IMG/VR virus record: IMGVR_UViG_2740892019_000005
Coordinates: 1-10,614 of that record
Origin: a virus
Lineage: Duplodnaviria > Heunggongvirae > Uroviricota > Caudoviricetes
DNA length: 10,614 bases
Direction: 5' to 3' (one strand)
Shown here: positions 1 through 10,614 of the stretch, piece by piece
How positions within the stretch are numbered: the first letter of the stretch is position 1
How the letters are laid out: each line of letters begins with the position of its first letter
The notes under the pieces: generated by a model
What the model saw: only the letters and a program-made list of their open reading frames with translations
What the model was told of the DNA's origin: nothing
Databases searched by the model: none
Translations under genes and position numbers: made by a program

Positions 1-536
1 TCATCATAACCCGCCACATCCACCGACTTTTCACGGTAGTTTTTTGCCGCTTTACCGCCCAGGCACCAAAAGCCACGACCATTGGTGAAACGCTTCATGG
101 TGAGCGTGTTATCCCGGTGCTTTTTGCCATACCACGGAGCCAGCGCCAGCAGCGACGGAATATCGCGGATGGTCGGCTCAACGTGGGTTTTCATAAAATT
201 TTCGGCATCGCCATCCGTCGGCAACCAGATAAGGGTGTTACGCTGCTTATGCTCTATGAAGTAGGCATAAACACCCAGCAGCATTTTGGAATAACCGACA
301 CGGGCAGACTTCACCACATTCACCTCACGGATGTAGTCGCTGCCCATCGCATTCATGATGGCCCGCTGAAAGGGCAGTGTTTCCCAGCGCCCTTCCTGGT
401 ATGCGGATTCTTTCGGGAGATAGTAATTAGCATCCGCCCATTCAACGGCGGTCTGCGGCTCCGGCCTGAACAGGGCACGAAGCCCGGCGCGGACAAAATG
501 CCGCAGCCTGTCAACCTGACTGTTCGATATATTCAC
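1..536 (-). CDS. A: Terminase large subunit, 5' portion only (gene continues beyond window start); GTG start at 534-536
   Basis: Minus-strand translation from 536 reads VNISNSQVDRLRHFVRAGLRALFRPEPQTAVEWADANYYLPKESAYQEGRWETLPFQRAIMNAMGSDYIREVNVV..., closely matching my recollection of lambda gpA N-terminus. No stop before position 1, so absent from the ORF track. Overlaps Nu1 3' end by 26 nt as in lambda. Confidence 0.9.
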   Translation of the reverse strand, partial: MNISNSQVDRLRHFVRAGLRALFRPEPQTAVEWADANYYLPKESAYQEGRWETLPFQRAIMNAMGSDYIREVNVVKSARVGYSKMLLGVYAYFIEHKQRNTLIWLPTDGDAENFMKTHVEPTIRDIPSLLALAPWYGKKHRDNTLTMKRFTNGRGFWCLGGKAAKNYREKSVDVAGYD

Positions 537-1056
537 TCAGCAACCCCGGTATCAGTTCATCCAGCGCGGCTGCTTTGTTCATGGCTTTGATGATATCCCG
601 TTTCAGGAAATCAATATGCCGGTTATCCAGCTCAGGAAAACGTCGCTGCACCGACAGAGGAATACCGTCGAGAATACTGGATATTTCCCTTGCTATACGC
701 GACAGCACGAAAGTACAGAATGCGGTTTCCACCACTTCAGCCGATTCTTTGGCATTTTTCAGTTCCTGCGCCGTCGCCTGAGCACGAGTCAGGCGATGGC
801 GCTCAAATTCAAGTGTTCCGGGGTGAAGATCTGCCTCGCTGGCCAGCCGCAGTTCTTCAACCTCCCGGCGCAGCTTTTCGTTCTCAATTTCAGCATCCCT
901 TTCGGCATACCATTTTATGACGGCGGCAGAATCATAAAGCACCTCATTACCCTTGCCACCGCCTCGCAGAACGGGCATTCCCTGCTCCTGCCAGTTCTGA
1001 ATGGTACGGATACTCGCACCGAAAATATCAGCCAGCTGCTTTTTGTTGACTTCCAT
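511..1056 (-). CDS. nu1: Terminase small subunit Nu1 (181 aa)
   Basis: ORF-track protein MEVNKKQLADIFGASIRTIQNWQEQGMPVLRGGGKGNEVLYDSAAVIKWYAERDAEIENEKLRREVEEL... matches lambda Nu1 from memory over almost the full length, including the N-terminal winged-HTH. Upstream sequence CCGTGGAATGAACA-ATG matches lambda. Confidence 0.95.
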   Translation of the reverse strand: MEVNKKQLADIFGASIRTIQNWQEQGMPVLRGGGKGNEVLYDSAAVIKWYAERDAEIENEKLRREVEELRLASEADLHPGTLEFERHRLTRAQATAQELKNAKESAEVVETAFCTFVLSRIAREISSILDGIPLSVQRRFPELDNRHIDFLKRDIIKAMNKAAALDELIPGLLSEYIEQSG

Positions 1057-1059
1057 TGT

Positions 1060-1260
1060 TCATTCCACGGACAAAAACAGAGAAAGGAAACAACAAAGGC
1101 CAAAAAGCCCGTTTTCAGCATCTGTCGTTTCCTTTCTTTTCAGGGGGTGTTTTAAATAAAAACATTAAGTTACGGCGAAGAAGAACGGAAACGCCTTAAA
1201 CCGGAAAATTTTCATAAATAGCGAAAACCCGCGCGCCTTCCGCCCCGTAGCCTGCCGGAT
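1060..1260. other. cos site: cosB-like segment (Nu1 R-sites and IHF region) and cosN-equivalent near 1234-1245
   Basis: Minus-strand sequence ...CGCGGGTTTTCGCTATTTATGAAAATTTTCCGGTTTAAGGCGTTTCCGTTCTTCTTCG...GAAAGGAAACGACAG... is nearly identical to the lambda left-end cosB region as I recall it. The aligned cosN 12-mer reads GGGCGGAAGGCG rather than lambda GGGCGGCGACCT. Confidence 0.7.
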
Positions 1261-1327
1261 CGCCGGAAAGGACCCGCAGGCGTTCTAGTTTATTCGCAAT
1301 GAATTCAATGTCTGACAGACCTGCGTC

Positions 1328-1345
1328 GTGCGACCACGGTCGCAC
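1328..1345. repeat. 18-bp perfect palindrome GTGCGACC-AC-GGTCGCAC, copy 1 of 4
   Basis: Exact 18-mer also at 2995-3012 and 3215-3232, and as the reverse-centre form (GT centre) at 6250-6267. The 8-bp arms are perfect reverse complements. Confidence 0.85.
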
Positions 1346-1370
1346 AGCAATGAATCAACATCCTGCATGC

Positions 1371-1438
1371 TCGCGCAGAGGAGTTCCCCGTCGGACTACG
1401 GTCATGGTTAATGCGGGAATACAGCGACGATACAGCGC
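1371..1438 (+). repeat. 68-bp direct repeat, copy 1 (second copy at 3137-3204)
   Basis: tcgcgcagaggagttccccgtcggActacggtcatGgttaatgcgggaatacAgcgacgatAcagcgc versus copy 2, with only 4 transition differences (capitals). Confidence 0.85.
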
Positions 1439-1554
1439 ATGATGTGTCAGGCTTGAATACCTTTATCCGTTAAAAGGGATATCAGTTAAGTTATCCCGTG
1501 CAGGGTATAAGCCATTATCAAAGCCACTCAGTAGCGAATGGCTTTTGTAATGGA

Positions 1555-2004
1555 CTATTTAATTAGTGATGCTGCGTATTCGATTAGATATAACTTAGGT
1601 GCCAGCCAAATTTTTAACCATGTCATATTGGCTACTACAGAAATAATAAAACTGAACCATAGAATAAAAACTGCTACTAATGGTAAGACAAAACCACTTA
1701 ACCTACCGTCACTTTCCCAAATCATAGTCGGTTTGTATTTAGGCTGTCCATTATCCCATGAGCGTCCTTCATTATCGAACTTACCAATTTCAACTTTTTT
1801 GCACTGTTTCTTCATAAACCAAATAACCAGCGGGATTGTTGAAATAGCTATTAATGTTTTAATCAGGCTATCAACCATATTCCATACCAGCAACTGATGA
1901 ACAACATCCGGAATCTGAGCCTGACTGAATGCAATGGCGGAATCAATTCCATCGCTGGCCTTCTTCAATAAATCAACAAGAATTTTATTTGCTTCTTCTT
2001 GCAT
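1555..2004 (-). CDS. Hypothetical small membrane protein (149 aa, about 2 predicted transmembrane segments); cargo gene
   Basis: ORF-track protein with hydrophobic stretches LIKTLIAISTIPLVIWF and GFVLPLVAVFILWFSFIISVVANMTWL separated by a charged loop. Region is visibly AT-rich. No lambda counterpart at this position. Confidence 0.6.
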   Translation of the reverse strand: MQEEANKILVDLLKKASDGIDSAIAFSQAQIPDVVHQLLVWNMVDSLIKTLIAISTIPLVIWFMKKQCKKVEIGKFDNEGRSWDNGQPKYKPTMIWESDGRLSGFVLPLVAVFILWFSFIISVVANMTWLKIWLAPKLYLIEYAASLIK

Positions 2005-2128
2005 GTTTATATCCTGTAAGTTGTAAGCCTGTTCGAAAAAAAATAAACAACTACGAGAGACAGAAAAAATATCTCAGGCTCTCTTTCTATAAGCTTTTAG
2101 TTGAGGATGTTCTGCAAAACAAAACTGG

Positions 2129-2971
2129 TTAGTTATGTAACTGCTTCCGGAATACAACAGCCGACGTGCTACAACGTAAAATTCGTTTGATTGTGGCCGT
2201 TGAGGAAACAGACTTGCATTTCTCAACATCATCAATGATGACCACATCCAGTACAGGTATGGCGCGGGTATGCAATGTTTTTGCACTAATAACATCACAA
2301 CCATTCAGCGGTCGAATATCTGAATCTTCAGGCACTACCAGAAGCACACGTTTTCCCGGTGCAGAAAAGCCAGCAGCAAGAGTTCGTGACAATAAAGTCA
2401 TTCCACTACGTGGCTTCATACAAATTTCAGAAATATGATTTTTTTCGTCAAAATGATGCTGGCCATCATTTTTATCATTACTCAACAACTCTGCTGTTAA
2501 TACAATCCCTGCTGTCTCAGATTTCCAGGAAATGCTGATATCCTGATCATCTGCATCAACATCATATTTCATCGAGTAAGGACTAAAGCAACGTCCAACG
2601 AACGCATCATTTACCAGTACACGCCCACCCTGTCTGACCTGAAAGTCAACGCGCCCTAAAAGCTGATTTGCTGTTACAAGCAATGCCTTTTTTCTTTTTG
2701 TTTTATTGCTCATTGCCACAAATTGTTCTGCCATCTCTCTTGTTACATCACCAGCAATTCTTTCCAGCAGTTTTACATTAACATTCTCCGTAAAATATCT
2801 GGATGACATCAGGCAGTTATTAACAATTGGCATCAGCTCACTTACGATTGTAAAAAATTCCCGGTAAAGCTCATTTTGCTTTTCAACACACAGTTCTCCA
2901 CAATCGTCCAGCTTACGCTCAAGAGCACTTAATCTTTCCATTATTGAATTAATTTTTTGCAACTCTTTCAT
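2129..2971 (-). CDS. Hypothetical protein (280 aa), no recognisable family; cargo gene upstream of the membrane protein
   Basis: Start ATG at 2969-2971 is preceded by AGGAGG (tctttgtcAGGAGGttttgATG). The ORF-track ORF extends to 3232 but that extension crosses a palindrome and a repeat and has no RBS. N-terminus looks helical/coiled-coil (MKELQKINSIMERLSALERKLDD...). Confidence 0.65.
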   Translation of the reverse strand: MKELQKINSIMERLSALERKLDDCGELCVEKQNELYREFFTIVSELMPIVNNCLMSSRYFTENVNVKLLERIAGDVTREMAEQFVAMSNKTKRKKALLVTANQLLGRVDFQVRQGGRVLVNDAFVGRCFSPYSMKYDVDADDQDISISWKSETAGIVLTAELLSNDKNDGQHHFDEKNHISEICMKPRSGMTLLSRTLAAGFSAPGKRVLLVVPEDSDIRPLNGCDVISAKTLHTRAIPVLDVVIIDDVEKCKSVSSTATIKRILRCSTSAVVFRKQLHN

Positions 2972-2994
2972 CAAAACCTCCTGACAAAGATACC

Positions 2995-3012
2995 GTGCGA
3001 CCACGGTCGCAC
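2995..3012. repeat. 18-bp palindrome GTGCGACCACGGTCGCAC, copy 2; 23 bp upstream of the 280-aa gene start
   Basis: Exact repeat of the 1328-1345 sequence. Confidence 0.85.
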
Positions 3013-3136
3013 GCTCCTGAATACATGCCCTGTTTCTTCCACCCTCGCACAGGACTGGCGAGCATGAGGGACAAACCCGCGAATCAATAGCGCGGTAAAA
3101 ACCCGGTGTGCATCGTTTTTGATTATTTCCGCACAC

Positions 3137-3204
3137 TCGCGCAGAGGAGTTCCCCGTCGGGCTACGGTCATAGTTAATGCGGGAATACGGCGACGATGCA
3201 GCGC
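3137..3204 (+). repeat. 68-bp direct repeat, copy 2
   Basis: About 94% identical to 1371-1438. The flanking upstream sequence (about 3030-3136) also resembles a lambda segment near bor that I recall, but this is unverified. Confidence 0.85.
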
Positions 3205-3214
3205 GGAATTTAGC

Positions 3215-3232
3215 GTGCGACCACGGTCGCAC
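3215..3232. repeat. 18-bp palindrome GTGCGACCACGGTCGCAC, copy 3
   Basis: Exact repeat, 10 bp after direct-repeat copy 2. Confidence 0.85.
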
Positions 3233-3251
3233 ACGAGAAACAAAGAGATTT

Positions 3252-3563
3252 TTATGCTACAGAGGAACAAGCTGGCGGGTAATTCAGCGTAGTGAATACC
3301 GGCATCTCCATCTTGTATGCGTAATGATACTCAGCAGTTGCTCCAGCAGACGCTTTCCAGCCAGGAAGCATCAAAATAGCATCAGCAGAACGAAGCATTG
3401 CAAAGCAAATATCCATGTATTAACGTTGCGTCAGGCCATTGGGTAAAGTGGCTGGATTCAGGACCGAATGACCATGACGTGACAAACGCTCAGCCTCTTT
3501 ATTAAAGGCGTCACGATTAAAATTCTCATATCCCGTCATTGGTCCGGCAATATAAATTTTCAT
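3252..3563 (-). pseudogene. DUF4406-like / nucleoside 2-deoxyribosyltransferase-like small protein interrupted by an in-frame TAA (codon 48)
   Basis: Minus-strand frame from ATG 3561-3563 reads MKIYIAGPMTGYENFNRDAFNKEAERLSRHGHSVLNPATLPNGLTQR-stop(3420-3422)-YMDICFAMLRSADAILMLPGWKASAGATAEYHYAYKMEMPVFTTLNYPPACSSVA-stop. One continuous frame with a single internal stop. The MKIYIAGPMTG start is characteristic of the family as I recall it. Confidence 0.55.
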
Positions 3564-3604
3564 TTACTATCCAACAAATTAAGTTAGTTTTTGATGCAGA
3601 TGGA

Positions 3605-4066
3605 TTAATTCAGGCATTGCGTCCTGATGTACTCCTGCAAATATCCAACCTGTTTCGTCACTGTGACGATTCGCTCTCTGAGGATGAAATAATCCCGTTC
3701 AGCGGAGTCAGTAAGTCGGGGGCCGGTAGCATCGCCCAGGCCGCCGGTGATGGTCGTTCCGTTCGCGGGACATCTGGCGTTGAGGTGCAGCCCACACTTG
3801 CCAGTGCGAACACAACGCTGCAAATCATCAAGCTGCTTTTTGGCATCAGCTAAGTCCTTCGTGTATTTGGCATCCAGAGCCGCTACATCACGCTGGCGGA
3901 TCTGCATGTCTTTGATGGTAGCGTTCGCCAGCTTCAACTCTCTGGCGTTTTTGTCGCGCTGCTCTTTATAGGAGATGGCGTTATCACGGTAATGATTAAC
4001 AGCCAACGACAGGCAGACGATGATGCAGATAACCAGTGTGGAGATAATCGCGGTGACTCTGCTCAT
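3605..4066 (-). CDS. Rz: Spanin inner-membrane subunit Rz (i-spanin)
   Basis: N-terminal TM segment ([20 protein letters not shown]) followed by a coiled-coil periplasmic domain, similar to lambda Rz. Start ATG 4064-4066 overlaps the R stop (TAATG). Chosen over the upstream ATG at 4078. Confidence 0.85.
3658..3846 (-). CDS. Rz1: Spanin outer-membrane lipoprotein Rz1 (o-spanin), embedded in the +1 frame of Rz
   Basis: Signal peptide ending in lipobox-like ...ALASVGC-TS, proline-rich body, and C-terminal TPLNGIIS motif as in lambda Rz1. Lies entirely within Rz. Confidence 0.75.
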
Positions 4067-4563
4067 TACTGCCCCCACAAACAGACTTCACGCTCAATCT
4101 CACGGCGAGTCATCAGCCCTTTCCATTGCTTACCGCCAGCATATGTCCAGCGACGTAGTTGATCACATGCACCTTTGATATCGCCCTGGTTGATTTTGCG
4201 AAGAAGCGTCGATGTTCTGAAATTGCCTGCACCCACGTTGTAAACGAACGAGTAAAGAGCACCACGCGTTGTTTCCGGTATATCGACTTTGATGTACGGG
4301 TTAATTTGTCTGGCGACAGTAGCAAGGTCTTTATTCAGGAGAGCTTTGCATTCTGCTTCGGTATACGTTTTACCGAGCATAATGTCTTTTCCTGTATGCC
4401 CGTAACATACAGTCCATACACCAACGATGTCTTTGTAGGGGTTATGTTTCACACCTTCCAGACCATCGTTGCCGCTCGGACCAGAGATGAGCACAGATGC
4501 TATGGCAATAGCCCCGCCACCAATAGCAGTTGCGACAGCTTTGCGTAATGATGACTGCATCAT
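4066..4563 (-). CDS. R: SAR endolysin (phage 21 R-type lysozyme)
   Basis: [38 protein letters not shown]... has a Gly/Ala-rich N-terminal signal-anchor-release segment followed by a T4-lysozyme-like catalytic domain. Close to the phage 21 R sequence as I recall it. Confidence 0.9.
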
Positions 4564-4832
4564 ATTTCCTTCGGTGCTCTCTTTCCCAATTCACCAATAA
4601 CCATCGCCGTGGCGGAAATATTATTGGCATCAGTTTTATCCAATATGTCCTGCAATATCTTCGTGCGCTTCATCTGCTCGCGTTTATTGAGCCGGTATGT
4701 AAGTACACCGAGGATAATGCTGAACGCGACACCGATAATGAAGCCCCAATCCTGCAATGACAGGCTGGCAAAGAACGCAGTAAGACCAGCACTACCATAA
4801 GGTGCGCTGCTGTATCGTTCATCCATCTTCAT
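4560..4832 (-). CDS. S: Holin, probable pinholin (class II, 2 TMDs) with dual-start motif MKM
   Basis: 90 aa with two adjacent hydrophobic segments ([11 protein letters not shown] and [18 protein letters not shown]) and a charged C-terminus. Stop overlaps the R start (ATGA). Preceded by GAGGT. Confidence 0.75.
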
Positions 4833-4928
4833 ATCTATTACCTCGCAATAGTTGCTGAGGTTTCGGCTTGGAAACTATACGGCGAGAAATAACCCCCATC
4901 AAAAACGGCAGGGGAATATATTCTTCAG

Positions 4929-6050
4929 TTACTCAAATAACTTTTTCACTTCATCAACTGTCTGAAGATAACGTTCACCCTCAATCTCAATACCGATTGC
5001 CTGACGACCTAACTTCAGCGCGGCTTTAATAGTAGAGCCTGATCCCATAAAGAAATCGGCAACGATATCTCCGGGGCGTGAACTACTTTTTATAATATGT
5101 TCCATCATCGCTGCAGGTTTTTCACATGGGTGCTTGCCAGGATAATATTGCACAGGAGGAAACTCCCATACATCGGTATAAGGTACATCAGCAGTAACAT
5201 GAAATGGGCGGCGCAAATTTTCATACTGAGCCTTCAAATCATCATACTGCTTCTTTACTTCCTCATAATGCAATTTCAGATCGCTATAACGCTTTTCATG
5301 TTCTGAATAATCAACATTAAAAGGATATGGACACGGGACACCGAGTGAATCTGCCTTCCTGCGAAATAATTCGCATAGTTTATTAAAATCAATTAATGAT
5401 GGAAGCCGCCACTGCGAATAAGAAAACCAGTGCGAACACATCTGCTTTCCTGTCGCTGAATTAATGTCTGCGGCTGATATATCTAACTGACGGCGAGCCA
5501 GCGAAAAAGCATCAATTAGTGGAGAAAAAATATTTTTTCTTAGATCTGCACATTTTGAAGCATAACCTGACTGACCTTTAGCATAACCTGACGCGCCGTA
5601 ATGCTCTGCAAATAATATTCTTTCAGTAGCAGGAAAATAAGCCCTTAAACTTTCTTTATGACAACCGCGCCACATACCACTGGGTTTAGCCCAAATGATA
5701 TGGTTCAGAACATTGAAACGGTCGCGAGTTAATAATTCAATTTTTGACGCAAGGCGAGAGCCGGTAAACATATACAGGCTGCCATTAGGGGCCAATATCC
5801 GCCAAAATTCTGCCAAAAATTCGTCAATCCACCCCAAAAAGTCAGCATCGCTATCCCACTGGTTATCCCATGCGTTAGCCTTTACGCCGAAGTATGGTGG
5901 GTCTGTTGCAATCAAATTGACCGAGTTATCAGGGATGGTTTTGATAAATTGCAGAGAATCTGCGCAAACGAGTTGTGCGCCATGAATATTAGTGGTTTTG
6001 AACATAGCTATTATTTTTTTGCCTGGGTAAGCTAACCCGGCGATGCGCAT
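4929..6050 (-). CDS. DNA methyltransferase, beta-class (motif IV DPPY precedes motif I FxGxG), probably N6-adenine; YhdJ-like architecture
   Basis: N-terminal ...VNLIATDPPYFG... and C-terminal ...GDIVADFFMGSGSTIKAALKLGRQAIGIEIE... Alternative start at 6003-6005 (MFKTTNIHG...); neither start has a strong SD. AT-rich relative to the flanking lysis genes. Confidence 0.85.
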   Translation of the reverse strand: MRIAGLAYPGKKIIAMFKTTNIHGAQLVCADSLQFIKTIPDNSVNLIATDPPYFGVKANAWDNQWDSDADFLGWIDEFLAEFWRILAPNGSLYMFTGSRLASKIELLTRDRFNVLNHIIWAKPSGMWRGCHKESLRAYFPATERILFAEHYGASGYAKGQSGYASKCADLRKNIFSPLIDAFSLARRQLDISAADINSATGKQMCSHWFSYSQWRLPSLIDFNKLCELFRRKADSLGVPCPYPFNVDYSEHEKRYSDLKLHYEEVKKQYDDLKAQYENLRRPFHVTADVPYTDVWEFPPVQYYPGKHPCEKPAAMMEHIIKSSSRPGDIVADFFMGSGSTIKAALKLGRQAIGIEIEGERYLQTVDEVKKLFE

Positions 6051-6140
6051 CGCGGGTGGGCTTTAGGTTCAGCCTATAGCTCTGGCATGGGTTGACCGCA
6101 GGACAAGCTGCAACTTGTCCTGCGCCCACTTTTCAGGCAC

Positions 6141-6162
6141 AAAAAAACCGCCATAAAGGCGG
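6141..6162 (-). terminator. Intrinsic terminator on the minus strand (tR'-like), about 55 nt downstream of the inferred late-promoter start
   Basis: Minus-strand RNA ...AAG-CCGCC-UUUAU-GGCGG-UUUUUUU: 5-bp all-GC stem, 5-nt loop, U7 tract. Confidence 0.5.
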
Positions 6163-6201
6163 CTTGTTGGCTGTTGGGTACAAAAAACACAACTTAATAA
6201 A

Positions 6202-6230
6202 ACAATAACTAAAAACCGTCATTTTGCCAA
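6202..6230 (-). promoter_or_regulatory. Sigma70-like promoter on the minus strand: -35 TTGGCA (6225-6230), 17-bp spacer, -10 TATTGT (6202-6207); candidate late promoter
   Basis: Hexamers and spacing read directly from the sequence. Position between the upstream small genes and the MTase/lysis cassette, with a short leader ending in a terminator, mirrors the lambdoid pR'-tR' arrangement. Confidence 0.45.
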
Positions 6231-6249
6231 GCTTTTTCGTTTTTGTGCT

Positions 6250-6267
6250 GTGCGACCGTGGTCGCAC
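6250..6267. repeat. 18-bp palindrome, copy 4 (GT-centre orientation; extended perfect palindrome CTGTGCGACCGTGGTCGCACAG at 6248-6269)
   Basis: Centre at about -63 relative to the inferred transcription start of the late promoter. On the plus strand it is followed by TTTTT. Confidence 0.85.
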
Positions 6268-6272
6268 AGTTT

Positions 6273-6500
6273 TTAGAAAGTTGCCTGCTTATATTCATCG
6301 GTCAAAGAATATCGACCAGATCCACTACGCTTTGCAACCCCAAAACAGATCATCTGTTCGATGATAAATTCAACGGCAACTTGACTCAAAAAACAGGCTT
6401 CGCTTAACTCTTTCAGGGAAATGCGTGGGTATCCACGCATAACACATTCCACACTCAGGGCCGCTTCAGTCATATTTCCACGAATTTCATTAATATTCAT
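6273..6500 (-). CDS. Small hypothetical protein (75 aa), possible winged-helix DNA-binding fold
   Basis: ATG 6498-6500 is preceded by GAGAGG. Sequence ...ISLKELSEACFLSQVAVEFIIEQMICFGVAKRSGSGRYSL... is compatible with a wHTH. It occupies the position where Q would be expected, but is too small and lacks a zinc finger. Confidence 0.55.
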   Translation of the reverse strand: MNINEIRGNMTEAALSVECVMRGYPRISLKELSEACFLSQVAVEFIIEQMICFGVAKRSGSGRYSLTDEYKQATF

Positions 6501-6513
6501 AACGCCTCTCTAA

Positions 6514-6735
6514 TCAATCTTGAAACTGGAAATCAACATCAGCCATAAAGCGGTTCAACTCAGCCAGTTTTGACCCCATAGTCCCAACTAAGCGACCAGC
6601 CAGTCGGTCTGCTAGGTTGGTACTGTTGAAACCATATTCCTTTTCGAAACGTTCAACCTTCTGCCACAACTCATACAGTTCGTTAGCTATCTCCGCAACG
6701 TCGTCGCGCATTTTTTCGTTACCTTGATAATTCAT
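6514..6735 (-). CDS. Small acidic hypothetical protein (73 aa from the RBS-supported start; the ORF-track start at 6753 adds 6 aa)
   Basis: GGAGGA lies 4-5 nt upstream of the ATG at 6733-6735. No family recognised. Confidence 0.5.
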   Translation of the reverse strand: MNYQGNEKMRDDVAEIANELYELWQKVERFEKEYGFNSTNLADRLAGRLVGTMGSKLAELNRFMADVDFQFQD

Positions 6736-6825
6736 AATATCCTCCAAATTCATATAGTTAGTAGGTTATTGCCCCTCAATGACACGAACTGTAACTCTGC
6801 CAAACGAACACATCCAGTGTTATTT

Positions 6826-6841
6826 TTCACTTTTTAGTGAA
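6826..6841. promoter_or_regulatory. Inverted repeat TTCACT-TTTT-AGTGAA in the toxin-antitoxin promoter region; candidate antitoxin operator
   Basis: Perfect 6-bp arms about 60 bp upstream of the toxin start, followed by GGAGG RBS. Confidence 0.4.
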
Positions 6842-6900
6842 ATTTTTAATTTGCGCTGTTTTCTCGTTTTGGTGTATTTTATGGGTATGGAGGCTATAAT

Positions 6901-7212
6901 ATGTTTAACGTGATAACCCACCCTGCAGCACTGGATGAACTGCTTGAACTACCAGATGATTTGCGAGGTCGCATGACCAGATTAATTGAGCGACTGGAGA
7001 AAGAAGGCAACAAACTGAAGATGCCTCATAGCCGTGTAATAGGTGGAGGGCTTTTTGAACTACGAGTAGGGGATAAAAACATCGCAAGAACGCTGTACGC
7101 CTACGCGACTGGTAACGAAATTTATCTATTGCATGCATTTGTAAAAAAGACACAGAAAACACCGGTGAAGGCTATCGAAATCGCCAGAACTCGCCTGAAG
7201 GAGATGAACTGA
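6901..7212 (+). CDS. Type II toxin, RelE/ParE superfamily, HigB-like (phage Gp49-like)
   Basis: 103 aa; ...GGGLFELRVGDKNIARTLYAYATGNEIYLLHAFVKKTQKTPVKAIEIARTRLKEM matches the conserved C-terminal signature of Gp49/HigB-like toxins as I recall it. GGAGG RBS. Stop overlaps the antitoxin start (ATGA). Confidence 0.8.
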   Translation: MFNVITHPAALDELLELPDDLRGRMTRLIERLEKEGNKLKMPHSRVIGGGLFELRVGDKNIARTLYAYATGNEIYLLHAFVKKTQKTPVKAIEIARTRLKEMN

Positions 7213-7499
7213 TGAAAGCGAAAGGCATCCCGTTTAACGAAGTAAAAGAAAAACTCCTCAACACTCCAGAAGCCGTCAAAGGATATGAAGAGGCCGACAA
7301 AGAGCTGGAGATGGTAGAAATGTTATACGAAATGAGGGAAAGAGCAGGTTTAACGAAATCAGCTCTGGCTGAACGAATGGGGTTGCGCCCGTCAGCCATC
7401 AGCCGCCTGGAAAGCAATCCTTTAGGGGCAAGTATGAAAACTTTGGCTAAATATGCTCATGCCTGCGGCGCAACCATCGATATTCGCGCTGTTTATTAA
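7212..7499 (+). CDS. Type II antitoxin, XRE-family HTH (HigA-like)
   Basis: 95 aa with HTH ...LTKSALAERMGLRPSAISRLESN...; translationally coupled downstream of the toxin (toxin-first order typical of HigBA). Confidence 0.8.
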   Translation: MKAKGIPFNEVKEKLLNTPEAVKGYEEADKELEMVEMLYEMRERAGLTKSALAERMGLRPSAISRLESNPLGASMKTLAKYAHACGATIDIRAVY

Positions 7500-7513
7500 T
7501 TAGACCCTTTTAC

Positions 7514-7537
7514 CACCCCGTCCAGAAGGGCGGGGTG
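7514..7537. terminator. Strong hairpin between convergent genes (10-bp stem CACCCCGTCC/GGGCGGGGTG, loop AGAA); possible bidirectional terminator
   Basis: Seen in sequence; sits in the gap between the antitoxin stop and the stop of the 67-aa gene. No clear U-tract on either strand. Confidence 0.35.
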
Positions 7538-7541
7538 TGCA

Positions 7542-7745
7542 TCAATGATGTGAACGCTCAACAGCGATAGTTTTCTGACAATGCTGGGCAATCTCTCGCG
7601 ACATGTTGATGAGTCGTGAAACCTCACCAATATGTAGGCTGGCTTCTGGAGAAGCCAGGGTGACGCTAACCAGATCCAGAACGGCGTCAATATCTCTTAA
7701 ATTTGAATCGAGTTGTTCAAGAGTTGATACGGCTGCTTCAGACAT
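7542..7745 (-). CDS. Hypothetical protein (67 aa), probably SOS-regulated
   Basis: ORF immediately downstream (minus strand) of a LexA-box-like sequence. No TM segment and no recognised family. Weak RBS. Confidence 0.5.
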   Translation of the reverse strand: MSEAAVSTLEQLDSNLRDIDAVLDLVSVTLASPEASLHIGEVSRLINMSREIAQHCQKTIAVERSHH

Positions 7746-7783
7746 TAAATCTCATACCATTTAACTAAAAAAGGTTATTTATA

Positions 7784-7799
7784 CTGTATAAAATTACAG
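7784..7799. promoter_or_regulatory. LexA box (SOS box) taCTGTataaaattACAGgg
   Basis: CTGT-N8-ACAG with AT-rich spacer matches the E. coli LexA consensus TACTGTATATATATACAGTA. Lies about 45 bp upstream of the 67-aa gene start in its promoter region. Confidence 0.65.
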
Positions 7800-7827
7800 G
7801 GTAAAACTCAAACTTTACGGTCAATTT

Positions 7828-8070
7828 TCAATGAATTAACTGCGTAAACTGCTGTGTGGCCCGATACTTATGCTCTCTCCCTATGCCACGATCAGCTTTC
7901 TCAAGAAGTCCAGTACGGACAGCAGAATCAAGCATCCTTTTAACAATTCTGCTATTTAACCCAACATCAAAAGCAAGCATCGAAGCGAAAACAAACCCAT
8001 CACCACCATCAGAAAAGCTCTTTTCGCTCCGTTTTCGTATCATTTCAAAAAGCAATGCCTTTTTATCCAT
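7828..8070 (-). CDS. Hypothetical protein (80 aa), possible winged-helix
   Basis: GGAGGG RBS 5 nt upstream of the ATG; last gene of a six-gene minus-strand operon. Confidence 0.6.
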   Translation of the reverse strand: MDKKALLFEMIRKRSEKSFSDGGDGFVFASMLAFDVGLNSRIVKRMLDSAVRTGLLEKADRGIGREHKYRATQQFTQLIH

Positions 8071-8088
8071 TTATCCCTCCGTGACCAG

Positions 8089-8415
8089 TCACGCTTTGAG
8101 CGCAAGTTTCAACCTCGTGGTTGTAAGGTGGCATGAGCCTTCGCCATCAAAAATGCATTCTGAAACAGGCATTTTTTGACCACATCGCGGGCAAGTAGTA
8201 GATAGCTGCTTCTGCAGCTCCTTATAGTTTTTCCTGATCAGCAAACCAATGACTTCGTTCTCCGAATATGGAACTCGCCCTGGTCTACGCAATACACAAA
8301 TTTCCCCCAACATACGTAACTCGTCAGGTTCTAGAATCCAGTCCCGTCTTGATGTGCCTTCCTTCTTCAACCGTTCCCTGCGTCTCCTTTGCCGTTCTGC
8401 CGGTGTCAGCGCCAT
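8089..8415 (-). CDS. Hypothetical protein (108 aa) with Arg/Lys-rich N-terminus and Cys-rich C-terminus (CPRCG...C...C, possible zinc ribbon)
   Basis: AGGAGG RBS upstream of the ATG at 8413-8415. Confidence 0.6.
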   Translation of the reverse strand: MALTPAERQRRRRERLKKEGTSRRDWILEPDELRMLGEICVLRRPGRVPYSENEVIGLLIRKNYKELQKQLSTTCPRCGQKMPVSECIFDGEGSCHLTTTRLKLALKA

Positions 8416-8430
8416 AAATCCTCCTGAAAA

Positions 8431-8844
8431 TTACTTAACCCAATTAACTACACCGCCAGCGGCCACAACCGCCCTTTCACAGTCACGCTCATATCTCAAA
8501 GGTTGAAATACACCATCAATAAAATATTTATCTCCACCAAACGCTGCAGGAAGTGAAACAGAAAACTGAATACGATTATCATCCGGCACCACCGGCAGTG
8601 GCTGGGCTACATATAATGACTGAACATACCAGCCCTTTGATAACCAACTGTCAGCAATGTTTTTACTCCGGGTTATTGCCGGAATACCTAAGCCATTGTC
8701 TGAATGCAGCCATGCCACCGGTTCTGCTTCCAGCGAGGCTAACGCTATTTCATAAGCCCGGCGCTCAATATTGTCTCTCACGTCCAGGCTGCCTATGCGC
8801 TCTTTGATTTCTTTAATCAGTTCTTTGTCGGTAAAAGTGCTCAT
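8431..8844 (-). CDS. Hypothetical phage protein (138 aa), paralog of the next gene
   Basis: RBS AAGGAGA upstream of the ATG at 8842-8844 (the ORF track extends 7 codons further without an RBS). Shares the motif ASLEAEPVAW with the 150-aa neighbour. Confidence 0.65.
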   Translation of the reverse strand: MSTFTDKELIKEIKERIGSLDVRDNIERRAYEIALASLEAEPVAWLHSDNGLGIPAITRSKNIADSWLSKGWYVQSLYVAQPLPVVPDDNRIQFSVSLPAAFGGDKYFIDGVFQPLRYERDCERAVVAAGGVVNWVK

Positions 8845-8845
8845 A

Positions 8846-9295
8846 TCAATCTCCTTTGGTACCAATGTTTACAGCCTGGCAAGCCTCTTTGAGCACCCAG
8901 TCAACAGCGTCTTTCCATGCTCCGGTTTCGACTGGCGGATTTTCACGCTTAACCTGTTCATAGAAGCGCACTGCTTTAATCAATCCTTCTGGTGTCAGTG
9001 GCACAGGCGGGGCAGTGAATAACGCCTGAATTTCATAGTTCGGTCTGTCGTTGCAACCCTCTTTTGTCGGTACATATTTCCAGTCACCAACCCACGGCTC
9101 CCCCTGTGAGTCCGTAATGCCTTTTTTCACGTAGCGATATCGCCACGCCATCGGTTCTGCTTCCAGCGATGCCTGTGCGATACGAAACACATTGGCAAGC
9201 AGGCTGTCTGAGGATTGGTTATCGTGCGCCGGGTCGCTCAGGAAGCCATTGATGAATGATTTAATCTTCGAGTTTTCTCTGGTAATAGTGGTCAT
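8846..9295 (-). CDS. Hypothetical phage protein (150 aa), paralog of the previous gene
   Basis: RBS AAGGAGAG upstream of the ATG at 9293-9295. The ORF-track N-terminal extension to 9553 overlaps the upstream gene and is rejected. Motif ASLEAEPMAW. Confidence 0.65.
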   Translation of the reverse strand: MTTITRENSKIKSFINGFLSDPAHDNQSSDSLLANVFRIAQASLEAEPMAWRYRYVKKGITDSQGEPWVGDWKYVPTKEGCNDRPNYEIQALFTAPPVPLTPEGLIKAVRFYEQVKRENPPVETGAWKDAVDWVLKEACQAVNIGTKGD

Positions 9296-9296
9296 A

Positions 9297-10049
9297 TCAC
9301 TCTCCTTTGCGAATCTCTGCGGCAAAGTCAGTCGCATGCTCACCGAGTAGTTTCCAGTTATCGCGTATATCAGATGCAAGCGACTGTTCGGATTTTGAGT
9401 TACATTTCTGTGCAAACATTTCCACCCCCTGCGCCCGCACTTCAGACAGGAAAGAGTCGGTGGCTGGGGTTTCGACATTAGGTCGAAGCTCATAATCACA
9501 AACTCTTTCAATCCATGGTGATACTCTGTCGCATTTCCTCTTCTTGCGTTCACCGACCTTGGTTGCCTGCTGAATAATTACCCCCCAGCAAATGCTTTCG
9601 ACCTCTTCGCTCCATCCATCGCAAGCATCGCCTCTATAGTCGTCAATTGCAGCCTCAGCAGCAGCGATAGCCTCCTCAGCAGTTTTGTGACACTCGAAAC
9701 TAAATTCAGAGCCATATGAGAAATACATAGCCCCGGCCTTCAGCGCCGCATTCTCCGCCGCCAGAGCCGCGCAACTGGCCTCCAGCTCTGCAATGCGTTT
9801 GCTTTGAGCCTCTCGTTCATCCAGCAGTGCCTGCACTACTTCAGGGTTGAAAGCTGCGATATAATGAGCGTTGTTCTCTGCGTTTTTCTGTCCGTCAAAG
9901 CCGGTCCATTTGATAACGTCTTCACATCGTTTATCACCGGGCGTATGCACTGCATACGTACCAGTACCCGGCGAAATAAATGCGACCCATTCACCCTGTG
10001 TTGCCTGTTTTGCTATCTCACGCAGTACCTGATAATTGATTTCACTCAC
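9297..10049 (-). CDS. Hypothetical phage protein (250 aa) with central Ala-rich coiled-coil; possibly Ea22-like
   Basis: GTG start at 10047-10049 is preceded by AGGAGG and overlaps the upstream gene stop (GTGA). Contains ELEASCAALAAENAALKAG. The Ea22-like call is a recollection, not verified. Confidence 0.55.
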   Translation of the reverse strand: MSEINYQVLREIAKQATQGEWVAFISPGTGTYAVHTPGDKRCEDVIKWTGFDGQKNAENNAHYIAAFNPEVVQALLDEREAQSKRIAELEASCAALAAENAALKAGAMYFSYGSEFSFECHKTAEEAIAAAEAAIDDYRGDACDGWSEEVESICWGVIIQQATKVGERKKRKCDRVSPWIERVCDYELRPNVETPATDSFLSEVRAQGVEMFAQKCNSKSEQSLASDIRDNWKLLGEHATDFAAEIRKGE

Positions 10050-10468
10050 AGTACTACCTCCTGAAGATTTCCCTGATAAAACGCCAGCACACGCTGCATA
10101 ACTTCGCTCTTCTGGCAATCGTGACAAATCATGTTCAAGCGCCTGTCGTAACGACGTATTTCTCCGTCAGGTAATGACCAGATAAGGTCTGGATCAACCA
10201 CTACCGATTTCTTCGGCTTTACTCTTGATAGCTTTTTACGGGCGTTTTGCCAGTCCTTGCGTGCTTGTGCAGACAGAAATATCCCGGAGCCAGAGATATA
10301 CAAATCACCACTGGCAGCAAGCTCTCTTGATAAACGACTAACAGCACACCGGCTAATACCAGTTTCATCCGCAAGTTGCCTAACCGTTCCTCGTCCATTC
10401 AGGCGTACGAGTTCCACAATTTGTTTATTCAGTTCTTCCCTCTGTTCTGGTGTAAAAGCCTTTGCCAT
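10046..10468 (-). CDS. Hypothetical HTH DNA-binding protein (140 aa), first gene of the operon
   Basis: AAGGAGAA RBS. HTH-like segment TVRQLADETGISRCAVSRLSREL. Confidence 0.6.
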   Translation of the reverse strand: MAKAFTPEQREELNKQIVELVRLNGRGTVRQLADETGISRCAVSRLSRELAASGDLYISGSGIFLSAQARKDWQNARKKLSRVKPKKSVVVDPDLIWSLPDGEIRRYDRRLNMICHDCQKSEVMQRVLAFYQGNLQEVVL

Positions 10469-10547
10469 TACGATTCTCCTTGCCCTTTTACAAGACGGGA
10501 GAAAATTGCGGATACATATTTAGCCTGATGAATAGCATCAGCCAGGG

Positions 10548-10614
10548 GGTAATGACTCCAACTTACTGATAGTGTTTTATGTTCAGATAATGCCCGATGA
10601 CTTTGTCATGCAGC
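10548..10614. mobile_element. IS1 terminal inverted repeat and first 67 bp (element continues beyond window end)
   Basis: GGTAATGACTCCAACTTACTGATAGTGTTTTATGTTCAGATAATGCCCGATGACTTTGTCATGCAGC matches the IS1 end (insB-proximal IR) as I recall it, with one or two differences. Confidence 0.8.

Follow-up and report, generated by a model that had tools for sequence, protein, structure and literature searches.

A probable AntC-type antirepressor gene behind a LexA box in an N15-like linear phage-plasmid of Escherichia coli

The stretch of DNA analysed here, referred to as the window, comprises 10,614 nt of a Caudoviricetes record (IMG/VR IMGVR_UViG_2740892019_000005, positions 1–10,614). Its genes run in the order Nu1 small terminase, Rz/lysozyme/holin, adenine methylase, gp51, gp50, a toxin–antitoxin (TA) pair, a 67-aa ORF, gp47 and gp46, all of them on the minus strand except for the TA pair, which lies on the plus strand, and this is the order of the right arm of coliphage N15 in reverse. 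The 381 bp surrounding the 67-aa ORF are 98.7% identical to the Ravinvirus phages YDC107_1 and PhiR46_1. The segment that carries this ORF, called antC for reasons given below, is present in 16 of 5426 complete E. coli genomes and is plasmid-borne each time (~46–75 kb), whilst the top matches to the whole window are Escherichia plasmids of 46–50 kb. Gene order, identity to Ravinvirus, plasmid-only occurrence and the plasmid matches together identify the window as the right arm of a linear E. coli phage-plasmid of the N15-like (Ravinvirus) kind. A scan of the entire window against Rfam returned no families.

The final 67 bases of the window (10548–10614) represent the terminal inverted-repeat end of IS1 and match IS1A/B/X3 at 98–100% identity in over 5000 plasmid records. 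The N15-like homology ends at ~10547, where the IS1 end starts, which indicates that IS1 has inserted between a DUF977-like gene (10046–10468) and the Q/cro/cB side, and the copy of the phage-plasmid in the window may be disrupted by this element. An 18-bp palindrome, GTGCGACCACGGTCGCAC, occurs in four copies (1328–1345, 2995–3012, 3215–3232 and 6250–6267), three of which fall in the cos-proximal region. In the phiKO2 record the equivalent palindrome site, which lies upstream of the late promoter and the methylase gene, is labelled 'putative plasmid partitioning site', and the four copies look like the dispersed SopB/ParB centromere sites that are typical of N15-type phage-plasmids. Two of the palindromes are adjoined by a 74-nt direct repeat (1365–1438 and 3131–3204, 92% identical), the copies of which bracket a segment of ~1.7 kb with a 149-aa membrane-like ORF (1555–2004, minus strand) and a 367-aa ORF of unassigned function (2129–3232, minus strand). 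The alignment of several related plasmids to the window begins only at ~1370, which suggests that a moron arose by insertion or duplication in the interval separating the lysis genes from cos/Nu1.

The features around the 67-aa ORF are the following.

6901–7212, plus strand: Gp49/HigB-like (HigB/RelE-like) toxin gene (PF05973, 2.5e-29), equivalent of N15 gene 49
7212–7499, plus strand: HTH antitoxin gene (HTH_3, 2.8e-12), equivalent of N15 gene 48
7514–7537, no strand assigned: GC-rich hairpin with a 10-bp stem, within the 42 nt that separate the stop codons of antC and the antitoxin gene
7542–7745, minus strand: antC-like gene, 67 aa, with an ATG start and a weak Shine-Dalgarno GAG at 7751–7753
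7778–7783, minus strand: alternative -10 TATAAA, a second candidate for the antC promoter
7783–7788, minus strand: putative -10 hexamer TACAGT, lying within, or sharing bases with, the right half-site of the LexA box
7784–7799, no strand assigned: LexA (SOS) box core CTGT-N8-ACAG, CTGTATAAAATTACAG; the full 20-mer TACTGTATAAAATTACAGGG lies at 7782–7801
7806–7811, minus strand: putative -35 hexamer TTGAGT
7828–8070, minus strand: homologue of N15 gene 47, upstream of antC and on the same strand (phrog_13995, 6e-47, and synteny)

The textbook consensus for LexA is TACTGTATATATATACAGTA, with which TACTGTATAAAATTACAGGG agrees at 15 of 20 positions by manual count, all eight of the CTGT/ACAG positions included. 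Seven sites of the form CTG-N10-CAG are found in the window, and it is in the box at 7784–7799 alone that the spacer is made up entirely of A and T. The box ends 38 nt upstream of the ATG of the 67-aa ORF. Homologous loci were gathered from viral contigs, genomes and phage records, giving 53 in total and 32 distinct versions when upstream sequence and protein are considered together. In 31 of these 32 the ATG is preceded, at -54 to -58, by a perfect CTGT-N8-ACAG, the sole exception being phiKO2, where ATGT replaces CTGT in the left half-site. A preliminary description of this DNA had placed a near-consensus LexA box upstream of the ORF, and this is borne out by a site that occurs once in the window and at the same offset in the homologues.

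A short motif of this kind could also represent a chance match in AT-rich intergenic DNA, in which case the ORF would be without SOS regulation. At least one CTGT-N8-ACAG occurred in 23 of 200 dinucleotide-preserving shuffles, and the one-base mismatch in phiKO2 points the same way. However, the mean over the shuffles was only 0.12 per window, compared with the one site present. Across 25 distinct promoter versions, moreover, the box is invariant and its distance to a conserved -35 element is constant whilst the flanks vary, and the same box precedes a homologue with a protein identity of only 37%. A chance match is accordingly very unlikely.

The 25 promoter versions, which include the 37%-identical homologue (L111) from an unrelated short contig, were anchored on the box. 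The invariant columns are TTTG (-13 to -10), at the putative -35 hexamer, followed by TGT, TT and TATACAGT, the last of which contributes to the putative -10, whereas the eight bases that separate TTTG from the box are unconserved. The spacer between the -35 and TACAGT is 17 nt. The distant homologue has the same promoter architecture in a different context, where there is no TA pair. A consensus promoter scan, for which at least 9 of 12 matches were needed, left the antC promoter uncalled as its hexamers are weak (8/12), and the promoter is therefore assigned from conservation alone, as a putative sigma-70 promoter with a -35 TTGnnn, 17 nt and a -10 TACAGT in which the box lies over the spacer and the -10. 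A box that covers the spacer and the -10 is the customary geometry of LexA-repressed promoters. LexA probably occupies CTGTATAAAATTACAG in this allele and, if bound, would cover the core promoter whichever of the two -10 candidates is used. It is possible that antC is additionally reached by read-through from the early operon, via the gene 47 homologue.

The pattern of variation within the ORF clearly indicates a protein-coding gene under purifying selection. When the window gene was compared with 31 other distinct alleles by the Nei-Gojobori method, dN/dS was 0.13–0.41 wherever dS was finite. The 67 aligned codons contain no indels, and variable columns number 43, 35 and 62 of 67 at codon positions 1, 2 and 3, respectively, with the third position the most variable. 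The invariant core consists of L12, L16, D18, D20–D24, V26, S27, S32–H38 (SPEASLH), R44, L45, M48–R50 and C56. AlphaFold2 places helices at residues 3–30 and 33–66 with a mean pLDDT of 87, and the protein is accordingly modelled as a two-helix hairpin, a prediction in which the SPEASLH motif is found at the turn. Foldseek searches of the model against the PDB and BFVD returned generic helical hairpins only, with E > 0.4, and since the fold is itself a generic helical hairpin these searches are uninformative.

The statement in the preliminary description that the product belongs to no recognisable family is not correct. Scans against Pfam and NCBIfam returned no families for the 67-aa protein, but it matches phrog_6301, a PHROGs family of unassigned function (E = 1.8e-35). 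A weaker match (E = 6e-8) is to phrog_10889, a family with the annotation 'anti-repressor' that is matched by seven of eight members of the AntC family. The protein is also homologous to an ORF of N15, as detailed below. A word-indexed homologue search returned only close E. coli relatives, and when 1.8 billion representatives were searched exhaustively with an HMM, only three true cluster representatives were gained (P0014, P0015 and P0018), the other matches being spurious coiled coils. One further sequence, P0009 (69% identity), was left out of the profiles as its middle section is a +1-frame translation, probably due to an assembly frameshift. By tblastn of 50,697 phage records, matches are confined to N15-like telomere phages, namely N15, phiKO2 (Gp47), several Klebsiella phages and one Enterobacter phage. 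As judged by these searches the family is small and restricted to N15-like elements. The identical 67-aa protein is encoded on at least 1000 public contigs. A Klebsiella-type AntC locus is also found on a 52-kb contig assigned to the alphaproteobacterium Limoniibacter endophyticus (NZ_BMZO01000013.1), with a protein identical to that of the KpLi5/P0015 type; the contig probably derives from a telomere phage and is present in the assembly through contamination or misassignment.

Downstream, the minus-strand ORF (7542–7745) faces the plus-strand toxin and antitoxin genes, the convergent arrangement that had been described at the outset, and the TA pair adjoins the ORF in 49 of the 53 loci examined. 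The hairpin in the gap, which had likewise been pointed out, is real and is located where relatives place a terminator. Its fold is calculated at -23.8 kcal/mol on the plus strand (z = -3.4) and -20.7 kcal/mol on the minus strand (z = -1.9). No U-tract follows it on either strand and an intrinsic-terminator scan made no call at 7514–7537. Most relatives have between antC and the antitoxin gene a bidirectional terminator composed of an A-tract, a GC stem and a T-tract, exemplified by AAAAAGGTGAGG...CCTCACCTTTTT and by the 14-bp stem of N15, and the two units thus appear normally to be insulated from each other. The lineage of the window and a 78%-identical sister lineage have CCCCGCCC-TTCT-GGACGGGG instead, with no U-run on either strand. 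The hairpin may function as a terminator or as a 3'-end stabiliser for both convergent units, with an efficiency that is uncertain.

In KpLi5, the region following antC (1700–1790 of the locus) contains two hairpins, a canonical terminator and then CCCCGTCC-TTCA-GGGCGGGG. Of these, the window (7500–7541) retains a hairpin of the second type only, and 'CCTTTTACCA', found just before it, is similar to the 3' flank of the canonical KpLi5 terminator, the first of the two. By comparison with KpLi5, the hairpin module of the window reads in the direction of the TA pair and not in that of antC, and it may have arisen from a terminator module by rearrangement or inversion.

Because the hairpin is without a U-tract in either direction, the earlier remark that transcription from antC could run antisense into the TA operon is reasonable for the lineage of the window. 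This could be taken further, in that the main output of the SOS promoter may be an RNA that passes antisense through a weak hairpin into the TA operon and shifts the balance of toxin and antitoxin, with the ORF being incidental. The absence of a U-tract, the negative terminator scan and a convergent layout with a gap of only 42 nt are all compatible with such a role. Against it, the ORF is coding by the dN/dS values given above, its frame is kept in homologues of 37–100% identity and its structure is confidently predicted, the two units are separated in most relatives by a canonical bidirectional terminator, and one homologue has no downstream TA pair at all. Since the ORF is under selection at the protein level and the distant homologue (L111) lacks a TA pair on its downstream side, read-through is unlikely as the main function of the locus, and an RNA output with an incidental ORF is regarded as highly improbable. 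Read-through could nonetheless take place as a side effect in the lineage of the window.

The identity of the protein is suggested by its counterpart in N15, an unannotated ORF (39619–39831, 70 aa) between genes 47 and 48. The two proteins are 52–56% identical over 63–67 residues without gaps (tblastn E = 9e-16; the match spans 39619–39807), and the N15 ORF has CTGTGTTTATATACAG at -55 from its ATG, with the box at 39564–39579. The gene order around the ORF is identical in N15, phiKO2, KpLi5, YDC107_1 and the window, and this order sets the ORF apart from the immB immunity region, with the gene 47 homologue on one side and the convergent gene 48/49 TA pair on the other. A census of LexA boxes in the N15 genome gave two AT-rich boxes only, the one at this locus and one before the umuD-like gene 26. 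On the basis of this census and of the position of the published antC, which we take to be between genes 47 and 48, we infer that the N15 ORF at 39619–39831 is antC. The second N15 box, TACTGTATAAAAAAACAGTT, lies at 21660–21675, directly upstream of gene 26 (UmuD-like, 21692–22078), and the N15 phage-plasmid therefore has two SOS-regulated units.

Induction of N15 is described in passages of several papers (PMC4488713, PMC3121763 and PMC11652158, citing Mardanov & Ravin 2007) as proceeding via AntC, a LexA-controlled antirepressor that acts on the CB repressor, and two of these (PMC3121763, PMC11652158) liken AntC to Tum of phage 186. A passage in a further paper (PMC10432266) states that the N15 repressor is experimentally non-proteolytic and is not cleaved upon SOS induction. 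The Klebsiella telomere phage NAR688, which encodes a homologue of the 67-aa protein, is inducible with mitomycin C (PMC12042878). We consider it likely, with a probability of about 85%, that the 67-aa ORF is the gene for an AntC-type antirepressor in an N15-like linear phage-plasmid, with a promoter under direct repression by host LexA. The suggestion in the preliminary description of a LexA-controlled prophage antirepressor or SOS regulator finds its support in the synteny with N15, in the fact that this is the sole N15 box not associated with umuD, and in the literature on N15 AntC.

In comparison with AntC of N15 (Mardanov & Ravin 2007, J Bacteriol 189:6333), the gene in the window belongs to the same Ravinvirus-like type of element, has the same position and falls in the same size class (67–71 aa). 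The motif LDxxLxD[IL]DAVLD[ML]VS...SPEASLH...RL..MSR is shared by the window protein with N15 AntC and its homologues in phiKO2 (Gp47) and in the Klebsiella and Enterobacter telomere phages. As with N15 antC, the promoter takes the form of a -35 TTGnnn, 17 nt and TACAGT, overlapped by CTGT-N8-ACAG. Unlike N15, where an A-tract/stem/T-tract terminator follows the gene, the allele in the window is followed by the GC hairpin that is free of a U-tract. The window allele is 52% identical to N15 AntC, whereas the cognate CB repressors are 78% identical.

The proposed induction pathway would then operate as follows. In the lysogen, a LexA dimer would sit on CTGTATAAAATTACAG, over the 3' half of the spacer and the -10, and keep antC silent. 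DNA damage would activate RecA, leading to the self-cleavage of LexA and to transcription of antC. The two-helix AntC would bind the CB prophage repressor, which would in turn lose its hold on the operators. CB, which is encoded beyond the window, would consist of an HTH domain and a degenerate, non-cleaving S24-like domain, and its release would permit expression of cro, Q and the replication and late genes and hence lytic growth. In the allele of the window AntC presumably interacts with CB in this way, and antC would be SOS-inducible, with an exact transcription start that is a predicted one.

The CB gene is absent from the 10,614-nt window, the N15-like part of which ends before it is reached. 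In YDC107_1 it lies ~4 kb beyond antC and is divergent from cro, and the encoded protein is 78% identical to N15 CB. Like N15 CB, it has an HTH_3 domain and a partial Peptidase_S24 match that covers profile positions 29–97 only. Co-evolution of AntC and CB was assessed in 22 distinct genomes by comparing the pairwise identity matrices of AntC, CB, Cro, Q, gp46, gp47, the toxin, the antitoxin, gp50 and gp51. The Spearman correlation with AntC was 0.61–0.85 for every gene, with CB not outstanding, and because all of the genes track the same phylogeny this comparison cannot part functional coupling from shared descent.

That the correlation with CB is no better than with other neighbouring genes, and that the ORF lies next to a convergent TA pair in nearly all loci, could be accommodated if the gene were LexA-controlled but its product were directed at a partner other than CB, such as the adjacent HTH antitoxin, the gp46 regulator or, in the style of DinI, RecA/LexA. 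The passages of the literature referred to above (PMC4488713, PMC3121763) nevertheless assign the LexA-controlled antirepressor of N15 to CB, the distant homologue keeps its LexA-box promoter without an adjoining TA pair, and Pfam returned neither DinI nor any other family for the protein. A target other than CB is thus considered very unlikely, and an AntC that acts on CB is preferred.

Between lineages, AntC is only ~50% identical whilst CB is 75–80% identical. With AntC alleles more diverged than their repressors, it may be AntC that sets the specificity of induction, or cross-talk, among co-resident N15-like phage-plasmids. Separately, as the canonical terminator is replaced by a hairpin with no U-tract, SOS-induced transcription of antC might run antisense into the HigB/HigA-like operon and in this way link DNA damage to the activity of the TA pair. 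Taken jointly, these two proposals are tentative and rather improbable.

Small antirepressors under LexA control are found in other phages. Tum of coliphage 186 is reportedly an antirepressor under LexA repression, which attaches to the maintenance repressor and prevents it from binding operators (Shearwin et al. 1998). Tum has 146 aa and a DinI-like C-terminal half (PMC3121763), in contrast to the window protein of 67 aa, which is without a match in Pfam or NCBIfam, and its phage is P2/186-like whereas the element here is N15-like. The antirepressors GfoA, GftA and GfhA of the Gifsy prophages and FsoA of Fels-1 are directly controlled by LexA and bind and inactivate a non-cleavable repressor (Lemire et al. 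2011, PMC3121763), and like them the window protein is small and encoded far from the immunity region. The Gifsy genes differ in being co-transcribed with a dinI homologue (PMC3121763), no dinI-like ORF adjoining the gene in the window, and in targeting another family of repressors, the GfoR/GtgR/DicA-like proteins (PMC3121763). No similarity to the Gifsy antirepressors was detected in the tblastn search of the 50,697 phage records, from which only N15-like phages were returned.

The module had already been described in N15 in 2007 and the copy in the window is a diverged allele of it, with 52% identity. The finding is accordingly correct but ordinary, with a low surprise value, and adds nothing to the biology beyond a diverged allele of a known switch. 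Its practical value lies in annotation. The names retrieved from databases for members of the AntC family are 'hypothetical protein' and 'Gp47' or 'putative gp47', and in the N15 RefSeq record the gene at the antC locus is uncalled, such that the experimental result of 2007 has never been carried into the databases. For the biology of the family, an AntC-type antirepressor under LexA control would explain how a widespread lineage of E. coli phage-plasmids can detect DNA damage although its repressor is incapable of self-cleavage.
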